Origin: an uncultured Pseudomonadales bacterium
GTDB lineage: Bacteria; Patescibacteriota; Microgenomatia; UBA1400; RBG-16-45-19
Reading direction: 5' to 3'
Length of the DNA: 28,036 nucleotides
Assembly (NCBI GenBank): GCA_964591645.1
Contig: CAZQBH010000002.1
Location: 4,651-32,686 of the forward strand
The notes beneath the pieces are model-generated. The model was not told where the DNA came from. It worked only from the letters and a program-made list of their open reading frames with translations, and ran no database searches. This document shows positions 2,317 to 5,849 of this stretch, in pieces; positions within the stretch are counted from its first letter, which is position 1, and each line of letters starts with the position of its first letter. Both the position numbers and the translations under genes were made by a program.

Positions 2317-3369
2317 ATGGCGAGTTTAACTGATAGCGCTCGAGTAAGTCGGATTGTAATTAAGTGGGGTCTGGTGGGATTAGTGGCTTTGATGGTGGGA
2401 CGAATGATTATCGGTGGCCTCATTAGCATGTATAAAAAGGCTCATCCGGTTGTGGCAGCACCGACTGTAGGATTCGGCGCATTGCCTCCAATTACGTTTC
2501 CCAAGAGCGAATACGACACACCAATGGCGTATAAGCTGGAAACGGTAACCGGGAGGTTGCCCACTATGCCAACTCAAGCAGATGTATTATTAATGGCTTC
2601 AACACGCCCGAATTTACTGGCGATGGAGCGTTCTATTACCGAGGCAAACAGTTTAGGTTTTACTGTTCAACCAGAAAAAGTTTCTGATTTAGTGTATCGA
2701 TGGCGAATCATTGACCAAATTCCTTCTACGTTAACTATGAAAATATACGATGGTCGATTCGTATGGGATACTGCCTGGGCAACAAATCCAAATTTTTTGG
2801 TAGAAAAGCAATTGCCGTCTCGGGAACAAGCAATAAAAGATGTATACAATCTTTTGGGAAAAGTGGGTGAAGCTACCAATGACTTGGCTGAGGATGAGTC
2901 AGTGGTTACATACTTAAAAGGAGCGGGAGGGGCATATCAATCGGCAGATTCTTTGTCTGATGCGGATTTTATCCGAATTGATTTGTTTAGAAAAAAATAC
3001 AAAGAAACATTCGCTTTCGTCACACCTCGGGCAGAACAAGGAACCGTCCGAGTAATATTATCGAGTAATTCCAAAGCCGGTAAAGTGGTTCGTATGGAAT
3101 ACAACTATTTTCCGATCGACTACACTGTAATTGAAACGTATCCGTTACGACCGGTTCAACAAGCGTGGGAAGAATTACAGGCAGGTAAAGGTTTTGTGGC
3201 TCAGATCGACAATGGGATTTCGGCGATCACAATCCGAAAAGTAACCTTGGCGTATTTTGATAGTTTTGAACCGCAGAAATATATACAACCGGTATATGTC
3301 TTTTCGGGGGACAACCATTTCGTTGGTTATGTTCAGGCGGTCAAAGACGCTAAAACGACGACGAATTAG
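2317..3369 (+). CDS. Hypothetical membrane-anchored extracytoplasmic protein
   Basis: 350-aa ORF, AAGGAG SD 4 nt upstream, single N-terminal TM helix (IVIKWGLVGLVALMVGRMIIGGLI); no recognised family. Confidence 0.8.
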   Translation: MASLTDSARVSRIVIKWGLVGLVALMVGRMIIGGLISMYKKAHPVVAAPTVGFGALPPITFPKSEYDTPMAYKLETVTGRLPTMPTQADVLLMASTRPNLLAMERSITEANSLGFTVQPEKVSDLVYRWRIIDQIPSTLTMKIYDGRFVWDTAWATNPNFLVEKQLPSREQAIKDVYNLLGKVGEATNDLAEDESVVTYLKGAGGAYQSADSLSDADFIRIDLFRKKYKETFAFVTPRAEQGTVRVILSSNSKAGKVVRMEYNYFPIDYTVIETYPLRPVQQAWEELQAGKGFVAQIDNGISAITIRKVTLAYFDSFEPQKYIQPVYVFSGDNHFVGYVQAVKDAKTTTN

Positions 3370-4280
3370 TCTACCCATTTAAATGTGGAATATACCCATT
3401 CAATGAGCTTGGTTGAGTCGGCGAAACGGTCCTGACTTTTGAGTACAACGGTAATGATATCGTGACCATTGCGAGTCACATAGGTTGCCAAACAATCCCC
3501 CGCCACTTCCGTCCAACCGGTTTTAACCCCGATGACACCGGGAACCGTCCACAGTAATTCGTTTAGGTTTTTTAGCTTATGCACGGTCTGTTTATCGGTG
3601 GTATAAACCGTATCTTCTTTAGTACCCACAAAACCCTTAAGCGTCTGGTTTTTCATGAGTTCATTAGCAATCAAGCTAAGGTCATAGGCACTACTATAAT
3701 GATCATCTGCTTCGACCCCAGATACATTGGAAAAATGCGTGTCTTTCAAACCAAGGGTAATAGCCCGCTGATTCATGAGATTAATAAAGGTGGAATACCC
3801 TCCCGCATGATGATCCGCCAAACTAACAGCAGCATCATTACCAGAATTAATCAGCATCGCTTCGATGAGATTCCTGACGGTTACCTTTTCCCCAGGATTC
3901 AAATCAACCGCATGACCAATCGCATCGGCAGCCCGAGTTACTACCACCGTTTCCTCCGGATCGTATTCAGTTTGGGCGACCAATGCGGTCATCATTTTGG
4001 TAGTGGAAGCAGGCATTAAACGTTCATGCTCATTTTTACCAAATATAAATTGACCGCTGGCGACGTCGTAAATTGCGACGGCTTGAGCTGAAATACTGGC
4101 AGGAAACGCACTCTCTTCGTGTTGCGCGGGAGGGAGGGCCATTTTATCTATTAGAGGGGTAACGGTTGTCGGTGAAGGTGACGCATTGGGTTGCCGCGGG
4201 GGATGGATAACTAAAAAATATCCTCCAACCCCTCCGATAATAACCATCAAACAAACGCAGACGATGATCAACCGTTTCAT
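3366..4280 (-). CDS. dacA: D-alanyl-D-alanine carboxypeptidase (peptidase S11), N-terminal membrane anchor
   Basis: SxxK (ASTTK), SxN (SGND) and KTG (GVKTGWT) penicillin-binding motifs; TM helix plus Pro-rich linker. Confidence 0.93.
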   Translation of the reverse strand: MKRLIIVCVCLMVIIGGVGGYFLVIHPPRQPNASPSPTTVTPLIDKMALPPAQHEESAFPASISAQAVAIYDVASGQFIFGKNEHERLMPASTTKMMTALVAQTEYDPEETVVVTRAADAIGHAVDLNPGEKVTVRNLIEAMLINSGNDAAVSLADHHAGGYSTFINLMNQRAITLGLKDTHFSNVSGVEADDHYSSAYDLSLIANELMKNQTLKGFVGTKEDTVYTTDKQTVHKLKNLNELLWTVPGVIGVKTGWTEVAGDCLATYVTRNGHDIITVVLKSQDRFADSTKLIEWVYSTFKWVD

Positions 4281-5626
4281 TATTCCGTTTCTTTACCTTT
4301 GGGTTGAGATAGTGATAAACGCGTATCGATTCGTTCCATATCGCGCGGGAATAAGCTGGCTTCCCGAATATTTTTGAGACCCAGGATTTGCATGGTTACG
4401 CGCTCGGCACCAAGAGCAAATCCCCCTAACGGAGGCACACCATACCGGAAGGATTGCAGATACAATTCAATATCTTCTGGTTTAAGACCCCATTGGGTAA
4501 CATGCTCCAGAATCTCTTCATAGGTATGCAACCGTTCACCTCCACTGCTCCATTCCACTCCCCGACCCAACAAATCAACACTATAGGCATAGGTGGGATC
4601 GGCGGGATCTGGAGCGACATAAAACGGTTTCTTGGCGGTAACAAAATGGGTAATAAAGATTAAGTCGGAACCAAGCTGTTCTTTGGCATATGCACAAATT
4701 TCACGCTCATCCTCGGGAGCTAGGTCTTTTTCTTGACGACAGTCACGCCCAGTCCGTTCAAAGATTATGTTTTGGGCTTCTCGAAGCTTTAACGCTGGAA
4801 TTTTTTCTGGAACCATAGGTAACGTTGCATTGTACAGAGCTAATTCGGTGGCGCATTTTTCCTGTACTTCATGAAAAATATATTTAATGACATATTCTTG
4901 CATCTCAATCACGTCTTCCCACGAATCCAAGAAGCCAAATTCTGCATCCAGACTGGTAGCTTCAGTGAGGTGCCGGGTGGTAACGGAGGGTTCAGCCCGG
5001 AAGATTTGATTAACAGAAAAGACCCGTTCAAAAGCGCCCACGAGCAACGATTTATATAGTTGAGGGCTCTGAGAAAGATATGCGTTTCGGTTAAAATAGC
5101 TGATCTTAAATACTTCCGCTCCCCCTTCAGGAACAGAAGAAATGATCGAGGGAGCTTGAAATTCCATAAAATCTTTGGCTTGTAATGCCCGTCTAAAGCT
5201 ATCAACCACCACTTGTTGGACTTTGAAAATGGCTTGGACTTTTGGATGCCGGAGAACGAGTGAACGATAATCGAGCTGAATGGGAAGTTCTGGATCGAGA
5301 TCTTCCTTGTTCATATCAAAGGGAAGTTCGGCTGCTTTGGAGATCAATTCAATTTTTTCAGCAACAACTTCGATTGTTCCGGTGGCCATTTTGGGATTTA
5401 TCAGTTTTTCCGGGCGGGCTTGGATTTTACCGGTTATGTAGATAACGTCCTCAGCATGAACACTGCTCGATAGTTCACCAAAAGCGAAGACTTGAACTTT
5501 ACCAGTTCGATCGCGCAGATCAATAAAAGAAATCTTGCCGTGATCTCGTTTGACATCCACCCAGCCTTTGAGTAAAACCGTCTCACCCACTTTGGAAACT
5601 GTGTCTTTGATAAGTGTGCGTTCCAT
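4280..5626 (-). CDS. aspS: Aspartate--tRNA ligase, short form (no GAD insertion), probably non-discriminating Asp/Asn
   Basis: OB-fold GWV..KRDHGKISFIDLRD, YLSQSPQLYK, motif 2 FRAEP, motif 3 GVPPLGGFALGAERV; 448 aa; AAGGAG SD. Confidence 0.95.
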   Translation of the reverse strand: MERTLIKDTVSKVGETVLLKGWVDVKRDHGKISFIDLRDRTGKVQVFAFGELSSSVHAEDVIYITGKIQARPEKLINPKMATGTIEVVAEKIELISKAAELPFDMNKEDLDPELPIQLDYRSLVLRHPKVQAIFKVQQVVVDSFRRALQAKDFMEFQAPSIISSVPEGGAEVFKISYFNRNAYLSQSPQLYKSLLVGAFERVFSVNQIFRAEPSVTTRHLTEATSLDAEFGFLDSWEDVIEMQEYVIKYIFHEVQEKCATELALYNATLPMVPEKIPALKLREAQNIIFERTGRDCRQEKDLAPEDEREICAYAKEQLGSDLIFITHFVTAKKPFYVAPDPADPTYAYSVDLLGRGVEWSSGGERLHTYEEILEHVTQWGLKPEDIELYLQSFRYGVPPLGGFALGAERVTMQILGLKNIREASLFPRDMERIDTRLSLSQPKGKETE

Positions 5627-5656
5627 ATACGCTCCTTTATATACTTATTTAGCCAT

Positions 5657-5837
5657 AAAAAAAGATGGCATTCCAACATACATTTGTATGAAGGGTCCGG
5701 AGTACTCCGGGCGGTGCCACCTTACTTATTTCTCTTTCCTGCTATTACGGGCGTACCCGGCGTGGTTCTACTCGTCGAATCAAGGCTCGACTTTCTTCCT
5801 GCAGCTCTTCCGGTGTCAGCCGGAATCAAATGCTTGT
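5657..5837 (-). ncRNA. T-box riboswitch, ultrashort Stem I type, Asp (GAC) specifier
   Basis: Minus strand: GA-UUCCGG-[CUGACA]-CCGGAA-GA (Stem I with GA motif); GGAAGAA...AGUAGAACC (Stem II S-turn); CGGG-UACG-CCCG (Stem IIA); AAGG-UGGCACC-GC...CCUU (antiterminator, 5711-5723); U7 tract at 5663-5657. Confidence 0.9.
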
Positions 5838-5843
5838 TTTAGT

Positions 5844-5849
5844 ATTGTA
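5844..5849 (-). promoter_or_regulatory. -10 box (TACAAT) for the T-box/aspS transcript
   Basis: TACAAT lies about 14 nt before the start of Stem I; no convincing -35. Confidence 0.55.

Follow-up and report, generated by a model that had tools for sequence, protein, structure and literature searches.

A probable tRNA-Asp-sensing T-box leader with a very short Stem I in front of aspS in a putative member of the Candidate Phyla Radiation

The 28,036-nucleotide stretch of contig CAZQBH010000002.1 analysed here (positions 4,651 to 32,686; hereafter the window, i.e. the whole stretch at its full length) carries on its minus strand the aspartyl-tRNA synthetase gene aspS, and the RNA leader ahead of this gene raises three questions: is it a T-box riboswitch, which tRNA would it read, and by what means would it act on aspS? 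Apart from T-boxes and the ribosome, no RNAs are known that read a tRNA for its charging as well as for its identity. A first-pass annotation of the window had proposed an ultrashort-Stem-I, ileS-type T-box re-specified for aspartate, and this proposal is borne out by a match of motifs with the Nocardia farcinica T99 construct, by the change of the loop codon from AUC to GAC, by 12 GAC leaders and by compensatory changes in the stems. From its sequence and predicted folds, the leader is probably a T-box riboswitch through which the charging state of tRNA-Asp governs aspS by way of transcription attenuation. The element is a variant of the known T-box kind and not a new kind.

The leader and its immediate surroundings comprise the following features, given in window coordinates in the order in which they would be transcribed.

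5844-5849, minus strand: putative -10 box TACAAT
5834-5657, minus strand: whole leader element as read from the sequence, from the K-turn to the U tract
5826-5834, minus strand: 5' half of the predicted K-turn, consisting of AGC (C-stem), an AUUU bulge and GA
5808-5825, minus strand: Stem I, UUCCGG (5825-5820), loop CUGACA (5819-5814) and CCGGAA (5813-5808)
5815-5817, minus strand: specifier GAC (Asp) within the Stem I loop, with the purine A5814 after it
5803-5807, minus strand: 3' half of the predicted K-turn, GA then GCU (from sequence, RNAalifold and covariation)
5760-5802, minus strand: Stem II, with an imperfect base (GCAGG/CCACGC), two S-turn halves and a distal hairpin
5797-5793 and 5772-5766, minus strand: the S-turn halves AAGAA and AGUAGAA
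5791-5774, minus strand: distal hairpin of Stem II, 5 bp
5741-5759, minus strand: Stem IIA hairpin CGGG-UACG-CCCG (5759-5748), then UAAUAGC
5724-5740, minus strand: purine-rich linker at the usual site of Stem III, with no hairpin
5691-5723, minus strand: antiterminator, formed by helix A1 (AAGG/CCUU, with CCUU at 5694-5691), the bulge and the A2 hairpin CCGGA-GUAC-UCCGG
5719-5713, minus strand: 7-nt T-box bulge UGGCACC (AAGG-UGGCACC at 5723-5713)
5657-5723, minus strand: OFF fold (terminator), in which AAGGUGGCA (5723-5715) pairs with UGCCAUCUU (5670-5662)
5694-5673, minus strand: second hairpin within the OFF fold, CC-UU-CAUAC-AAAU-GUAUG-UU-GG
5663-5657, minus strand: tract of seven U residues (U7)
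5624-5637, minus strand: Shine-Dalgarno (SD) sequence AAGGAG (5637-5632) and aspS start codon ATG (5626-5624)
4280-5626, minus strand: aspS, for an archaeal-type non-discriminating aspartyl-tRNA synthetase (AspRS) of 448 amino acids (NF003483, 468.5 bits against a cut-off of 353)

All of the strings quoted in the first-pass annotation lie on the minus strand at the places it gave, including GAC at 5817-5815 and the purine after it. Its bounds for the element, 5711-5837, have to be redrawn, as the real element is larger and runs from the K-turn at 5834 to the U tract at 5657.

A single copy of the T-box core GGTGGNACCNC is found in the window, where 0.09 copies would be expected. Rfam at its gathering threshold returned no match in the window, and at a relaxed threshold its T-box model, RF00230, scored 27.1 bits against a gathering cut-off of 93; the alignment nevertheless spans the full model (E = 3e-4, 451 nt searched), with the distal part of Stem I and Stem III deleted and with 2 nt at the Stem III site where the model has 17. 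When the whole genome (1.25 Mb, 97.6% complete) was searched with RF00230 at E ≤ 1, the aspS leader was the sole match. The predicted K-turn, a feature of RF00230 T-boxes, is at the base of Stem I, and RNAalifold applied to five leaders returned the K-turn stem, Stem I, the base of Stem II, Stem IIA, A1 and A2. On the count of the core, the end-to-end alignment and this consensus T-box architecture, a chance match was rejected.

Because Stem II varies in length from absent to ~90 nt, which scrambled the 5' part of a MAFFT alignment of all nine Asp leaders, we chose an alignment of five leaders of one build as the seed of a model (R1), namely the Asp leaders of this genome (G000) and of its congener G002, the aspS leader of G088 and two ileS leaders. 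R1 scores the window leader at 106 bits, a value that is not independent as this leader is in the seed. It also finds two further leaders in the same genome, both missed by Rfam: an ileS leader (G000:C7:24221-24364, plus strand; loop CCAUCA, codon AUC) before an IleRS-like open reading frame (ORF), and a serS leader (G000:C5:14128-14256, minus strand; loop CUUCCAA, codon UCC; UGGC bulge) before a SerRS-like ORF, the latter leader having been missed even at E ≤ 1 and both ORFs being judged from their N-terminal sequences. A single genome therefore holds three leaders of one architecture, in which three codons match three genes.

The structure was also examined in an alignment of 30 leaders from across the phylum, in which 95.4% of cells were paired and compensatory changes were seen in 26/26 pairs, with a covariation score of 0.807 against 0.215 for shuffled and ≤0.146 for slid partners; this alignment was fitted to the model, which favours the model, and its sequences are related. 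The three pairs of the C-stem (3-5/32-34), which are present in the RNAalifold consensus, all covary, as do 5/5 modelled pairs of Stem I (6 bp with a 6-nt terminal loop in the window), the Stem IIA pairs and both A1 and A2, and the base helix of Stem II covaries among relatives. The purine-rich strings of Stem II recur as GAAGAAA in 16/30 and as AGUAGA in 22/30 of these leaders.

With regard to the ligand, the specifier GAC is complementary to the GUC anticodon of the tRNA-Asp of this genome, and UGGC in the bulge is complementary to G73-CCA (the discriminator of this tRNA is G73 and its CCA is not encoded). The gene downstream is aspS, as first annotated, and NF003483, which scores above its cut-off, is the NCBIfam model for an archaeal-type aspartate--tRNA(Asn) ligase. 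The match of UGGC to G73 had been put forward as agreement independent of the codon; the complementarity holds, but it is weak evidence on its own, since the ileS leader of the same genome has a UGGC bulge, yet both tRNA-Ile genes have A73, and since a UGGU bulge is found in three GAC leaders elsewhere. UGGC is not unique to Asp, and the discriminator pair of the ileS leader would be a C-A mismatch. The ileS leader of the congener G001 (L146) likewise reads UGGC.

A loop of this kind might be read by another tRNA, either tRNA-Asn, charged by the same AspRS, or one recognizing UGA or ACA in a shifted register. No asnS was found above cut-off in the genome and gatB is present, so the AspRS must also charge tRNA-Asn; as this tRNA has G73 like tRNA-Asp, the loop codon alone separates the two ligands. 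AAC does stand at the same position in four aspS leaders elsewhere, but in the window the first base of the GAC codon has no complement in the GUU anticodon, and the register N-U-[codon]-R yields the cognate codon in Ile, Val, Ser, Pro, Arg and Gly leaders. Both tRNA-Asn and a shifted register were rejected for the window leader on the GUU mismatch and on the consistency of the register across these six amino acids, and we consider it very improbable that the loop is meant for either. By its codon the window leader reads Asp, not Asn.

The Asp reading can be followed in relatives. Complete leaders upstream of aspS were seen 15 times, 11/15 with GAC and 4/15 with AAC (Asn), and the gene of one extra GAC leader (L203) lies off the contig, so that GAC followed by A is kept in 12 aspS-type leaders. 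Relatives with GAC+A in the Stem I loop before aspS are G002, G071, G078, G079, G072, G096, G027, G101, G130 and G169, and GAC leaders precede archaeal-type and bacterial-type aspS alike. It had been expected that GAC and UGGC would both be conserved before aspS; this holds for GAC in the 11 leaders, but not for the codon of the AAC leaders or for the bulge of the three GAC leaders with UGGU. Within the order to which this genome belongs, the aspS leaders (G002, G001, G071, G078, G079, G072, G096 and G027) have a short hairpin with the loop (C/U)UGACA(A/G), a UGG(C/U)ACC bulge and a helix with a U tract, the G001 leader being cut by a contig end, and a helix followed by a U tract lies downstream of the leader in 9/9 inspected relatives. 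Stem I of G002, UCUUGG-UUGACA-CCAGGA, is a compensatory version of the window stem. Stem II ranges from absent (G071, G078 and G096) to ~90 nt (G072), and of the inspected aspS leaders only those of G027 and G072 have a Stem III hairpin.

The AAC leaders before aspS are L048/L159 (G088, of this order) and L175, L190 and L201 from a phylum sample; all four genes score as AspRS and not as AsnRS, and G088 has gatB and no asnS above cut-off. A second Asn-type leader in G088 (L065:124-301, plus strand; loop CCAACA, UGGC bulge) precedes an ORF that is aminotransferase-like, as judged from its N-terminus, and seemingly split into two frames (274-1023 and 1061-1636). In G078, an ORF of 153 amino acids with no NCBIfam match (L163:272-733) lies between the Asp T-box and aspS.

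The third question is that of output, for which transcription attenuation is the most likely answer on the basis of modelled folds. The OFF fold has a minimum free energy (MFE) of -26.1 kcal/mol against -7.5 kcal/mol for the ON fold (antiterminator), and both values lie within the ranges given in TBDB (-19.5 ± 7.9 for terminators and -7.4 ± 4.2 for antiterminators). The OFF helix, AAGGUGGCA paired with UGCCAUCUU, leads straight into U7 and encloses A2, which is retained in both states, and the second enclosed hairpin takes the CC of the A1 3' strand. The same three-way OFF design folds in the ileS and serS leaders of the genome and in the G002 aspS leader. As the terminator strand holds GCCA, the same letters as the 3' end of tRNA-Asp, both would compete for the four bulge bases. 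Upstream, the -10-like box stands ~10 nt before the K-turn, in a sequence, GTAGTACAATA, that also stands upstream of the G002 aspS leader, and a simple sigma-70 scan did not call this box. We infer a transcript start near 5838, just upstream of the K-turn, and likewise tRNA binding and termination as the output.

The likeness to ileS T-boxes claimed in the first-pass annotation is sound for the decoding module but does not extend to the expression platform, which has a U7 terminator in place of an SD sequestrator. The same tRNA-Asp T-box might nonetheless act on translation, an alternative fold governing the access of the ribosome: its closest structural relatives, the actinobacterial ileS T-boxes, are translational, a few leaders of the same build in the phylum (e.g. 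L199 and L200) lack a U tract and have the SD sequence right after A1, and in the MFE fold of the whole leader the region of the SD sequence and start codon is bound up with a portion of the IIA region. In the window, however, the SD sequence lies 20 nt past the U7 tract and is paired in neither conserved fold, the helix and U tract are kept in relatives and in the other two T-boxes of the genome, and the long-range pairing of IIA with the SD sequence is weak by its z-score (-2.24). Sequestration of the SD sequence was rejected as the main output given the place of the SD sequence outside both folds and the conserved helix and U tract, and we rate a translational output as unlikely because of this position of the SD sequence.

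Several points weigh against a tRNA-Asp T-box acting by attenuation, beginning with the low RF00230 score and the model-fitted covariation alignment described above. The base of Stem II has one mismatch and one bulged A where relatives have a perfect 5 bp, and the possible pairing of Stem IIB is just GC/GC (2 bp), against 3-4 bp in some relatives, in which it is AAGC/GCUU; both weaknesses had been flagged at the outset and both hold. Stem III is absent from the window leader. The terminator folds in a branched, three-way manner around 44 nt of interior sequence, and a simple terminator scan did not call it. From the literature, an antiterminator alone without Stem III binds no tRNA appreciably, Stem III being required if the discriminator is to bind tRNA, and T-boxes that act on transcription as a rule depend on a long Stem I to capture the tRNA quickly (PMC7583486).

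The same defects in Stem II, IIB and Stem III would suit a decaying T-box relic without regulation, in which case aspS would be constitutive apart from leakage through the terminator. The element is moreover patchy, since G006, a relative of the same family with a 78% identical AspRS, has no leader, and many archaeal-type aspS genes of the order are likewise without one. Against decay, the functional residues are intact, namely GAC-A, both S-turn purine strings, UGGCACC and the A1 and A2 helices; the design is retained in the congener G002, whose Stem I has changed in a compensatory way; and a stable terminator before an essential single-copy synthetase gene calls for some means of antitermination. 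As further members of the family are without Stem III, its loss looks to be a trait that they share. A relic is, in our estimate, decidedly unlikely.

Attenuation by a working tRNA-Asp T-box, which we prefer to these alternatives, would proceed as follows. Transcription would start just before the K-turn, and the 6-bp Stem I would present GAC-A to the GUC anticodon. The S-turn of Stem II (AAGAA/AGUAGAA) would prop the codon-anticodon helix laterally, the part it plays in the ileS T-boxes of Actinobacteria with solved structures, and the elbow of the tRNA would remain uncontacted, as there is no distal platform. If the tRNA-Asp is uncharged, its G73-CCA would pair with UGGC of the 7-nt bulge and stabilize the weak antiterminator, and with the antiterminator held the polymerase would continue into aspS. 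With a charged tRNA, or with none, UGCCAUCUU would capture the bulge, forming the stable three-way fold at U7, and transcription would stop.

A second gene would probably fall under the same attenuation.

3366-4280, minus strand: DD-carboxypeptidase-like gene (ORF coordinates; DacA/DacD-type matches, all below cut-off)

The start of this gene overlaps the aspS stop codon by one base, the final one, and it is probably co-transcribed with aspS; tRNA-Asp may therefore control a cell-wall enzyme too.

As to how far the design extends, weak RF00230 matches are present in 69/101 genomes of the order, whereas the Rfam cut-off is passed in just 7/101, so that standard annotation misses most T-boxes of the Candidate Phyla Radiation (CPR). 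About 115 further T-box matches of the order were taken and their downstream ORFs were clustered and then named. The loop triplets are AGC or UCC before SerRS, CCC or CCU before ProRS, CGC before ArgRS and before argH (2/7 leaders resolved), GGC before GlyRS (with a UGGA bulge), AUC before IleRS, GUC before ValRS, UGG before TrpRS and UGU/UGC before CysRS. The ileS leaders of the order are built on the frame of the window leader, with AUC in the loop and UGGU in the bulge.

For an unbiased test, any hairpin of ≥5 bp with a loop of 5-8 nt and a triplet plus purine at the loop end was accepted; a caller of Stem I from the K-turn flanks had been dropped as it left 46/77 leaders unresolved, as had a test with stems of ≥4 bp, for which the background was too high. 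The test gave 51/76 cognate triplets, whereas 10,000 shuffles of the labels averaged 22.3 and reached 36 at most, figures that do not amount to a probability because the sequences are related. The suggestion that the loop triplet covaries with the downstream synthetase is thereby upheld, and for Asp 8/9 leaders fell on the diagonal, with no more than 2 in each of the other groups. R1 matched 44/151 genomes in a sample drawn evenly from the phylum, and among the 29 best matches AUC preceded IleRS in 14/14 and GUC preceded ValRS in 8/8; the seven of aspS type have GAC (L180, L185, L197 and L203) or AAC (L175, L190 and L201).

The family is phylum-wide and covers at least Gly, Ile, Val, Asp/Asn, Ser, Pro, Arg, Trp and Cys, and probably His also. 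The view of the first-pass annotation that the architecture is limited neither to Ile nor to Actinobacteria is therefore upheld, but not its Asp-sensing class, as the leader belongs to a phylum-wide family for many amino acids. A broader statement would be that the CPR has phylum-wide, unpublished, transcription-terminating T-boxes that consist of a K-turn, a hairpin of 4-7 bp and a terminal specifier loop, make no elbow contact, often lack Stem III and serve at least ten amino acids, with switching between Asp and Asn on aspS and, in this genus, a terminator strand that competes with the 3' end of the tRNA for UGGN; taken as a whole, we would give this statement an even chance of being right.

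Some leaders of the order merit a description of their own. The GlyRS leaders (L084, L104, L141, L126, L071, L088 and others) have a Stem I of 4-5 bp with the loop (C)UGGCA(A), and they have neither a long Stem I nor a Stem II, as Stem I stands just 60-76 nt before the T-box. L066 (G064:C5) has the loop GUCACGA (CAC, His) and a UGGG bulge (for C73, as in tRNA-His), and precedes a Peptidase_M15 / VanY-like gene and not a histidine gene. Leaders of Trp type (UGG; loop AGAAUGGG or similar; L029, L122, L023 and L028) precede a gene of the Asp/Glu-racemase family, a gene with a PPDK_N domain and a gene that weakly resembles anthranilate phosphoribosyltransferase. The top-scoring long canonical T-boxes of the order (80-107 bits; several of L002-L022) precede proteins of 300-365 amino acids with no Pfam match.

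The host had been taken for a putative CPR bacterium from sequence, which is reasonable: the close relatives of the AspRS are named Candidatus Woesebacteria, which supports an origin in the CPR/Patescibacteria. The two metagenome-assembled genomes of the same genus (L166 and L167) are titled 'uncultured Pseudomonadales bacterium', although their AspRS relatives are from Woesebacteria and their genomes are of ~1 Mb, which has the look of a labelling error. The DNA runs come from sludge and sediment metagenomes.

A literature search found no paper linking T-boxes with the Candidate Phyla Radiation, Patescibacteria or Microgenomates, an absence that is no proof that the matter is unpublished. The class II model of TBDB was built from ileS leaders and searched in Actinobacteria only, plus class I matches with a truncated Stem I; translational T-boxes are mostly actinobacterial (PMC7583486), and in the picture given by the 2020 review switches that act during transcription use a long Stem I to seize the tRNA elbow quickly, and a reduced Stem I is typical of the slow ileS switches that act on translation in Actinobacteria. 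If our reading is true, the accepted tie of transcriptional control to a long Stem I would not be general, as the window leader and its relatives join the stripped-down reader to a terminator, for many amino acids, and do so in hosts that have ~1-Mb genomes and in which few regulators are known. Should it work in this way, the leader would offer a natural minimal T-box of ~180 nt without Stem III for kinetic and structural study, with natural codon swaps (Asp, Asn, Ile, Val and Ser) on one scaffold.

The known systems closest to the window leader are the actinobacterial ileS T-boxes (N. farcinica, PDB 6UFM; Mycobacterium tuberculosis, PDB 6UFG; 'class II' of TBDB, in which the specifier loop is the Stem I hairpin loop), and our comparison with them rests on the N. 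farcinica ileS T99 construct whose sequence is printed in the supplement of PMC10651847. Shared with this class are the K-turn, a Stem I of 5-6 bp, a 6-nt terminal loop N-N-[codon]-A followed by GAGC, a Stem II whose two strands carry GGAAGAA and AGUAGAACC respectively, a CGGG..CCCG IIA hairpin followed by ..AGC, and the lack of a distal elbow platform. Stem I is UCCGG-CCAUCA-CCGGG in T99 and UUCCGG-CUGACA-CCGGAA in the window; after it T99 continues GAGCC-UUCGG-AAGAAC and the window GAGCU-GCAGG-AAGAAAG, the 3' strand of Stem II being CAGUAGAACCGAA in T99 and GAGUAGAACCACG in the window and the Stem IIA region CGGGUGAGCCCCGUCACAGCUC and CGGGUACGCCCGUAAUAGCAG respectively. Motif order and spacing are those of T99, with which the Nocardia and Mycobacterium template of the first-pass annotation also agrees in motif order, and the S-turn halves match almost position for position. 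Of the compact IIA/B pseudoknot of this class, the window has the covarying IIA hairpin and, for IIB, a possible GC/GC; in our own reading of T99, the loop GAGC in its IIA region is able to pair with GCUC. In the N. farcinica T-box the codon-anticodon helix is clamped by a string of five purines, A38, A39 and A69-G70-A71 (PMC7583486); equivalents with the same letters are found in the window at 5794-5793 and 5769-5767, and a Stem II S-turn with this string is accordingly predicted at matching places, to judge from the aligned letters. The window leader differs from the class in having GAC and not AUC, in preceding aspS and not ileS, in its CPR host, in its terminator with U7 in place of an SD sequestrator, in the absence of Stem III and in a IIB of ~2 bp, and its UGGC bulge differs from the UGGU of the ileS leaders of its own order.

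With the canonical transcriptional T-boxes of Firmicutes (RF00230), for which aspS is a known target (Wels et al. 2008, PMC2494555), the leader shares the specifier codon, the UGGN bulge, the competition of antiterminator and terminator and the predicted attenuation output. Unlike the window leader, these carry the specifier in an internal loop of a long Stem I and possess an apical elbow platform and Stem III; no long Stem I with an apical platform (IDTM) is present in the window, and the Rfam alignment deletes this distal part. The Firmicutes terminator takes the 3' strands of the antiterminator, whereas that of the window takes the bulge and keeps A2 as a branch. In Clostridium acetobutylicum, Saad and co-workers reportedly described in 2013 an Asn-specific T-box before the genes for a non-discriminating AspRS and GatCAB, with a long Stem I and two overlapping codons. 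This would be a precedent for the four AAC leaders, which seem to read tRNA-Asn, whereas the window leader reads Asp. Finally, the glyQS T-boxes of Bacillus and Geobacillus are minimal in another way, being without Stem II and IIA/B (PMC7583486); they keep a long Stem I and Stem III, and the window leader is their reverse, keeping Stem II and losing both.

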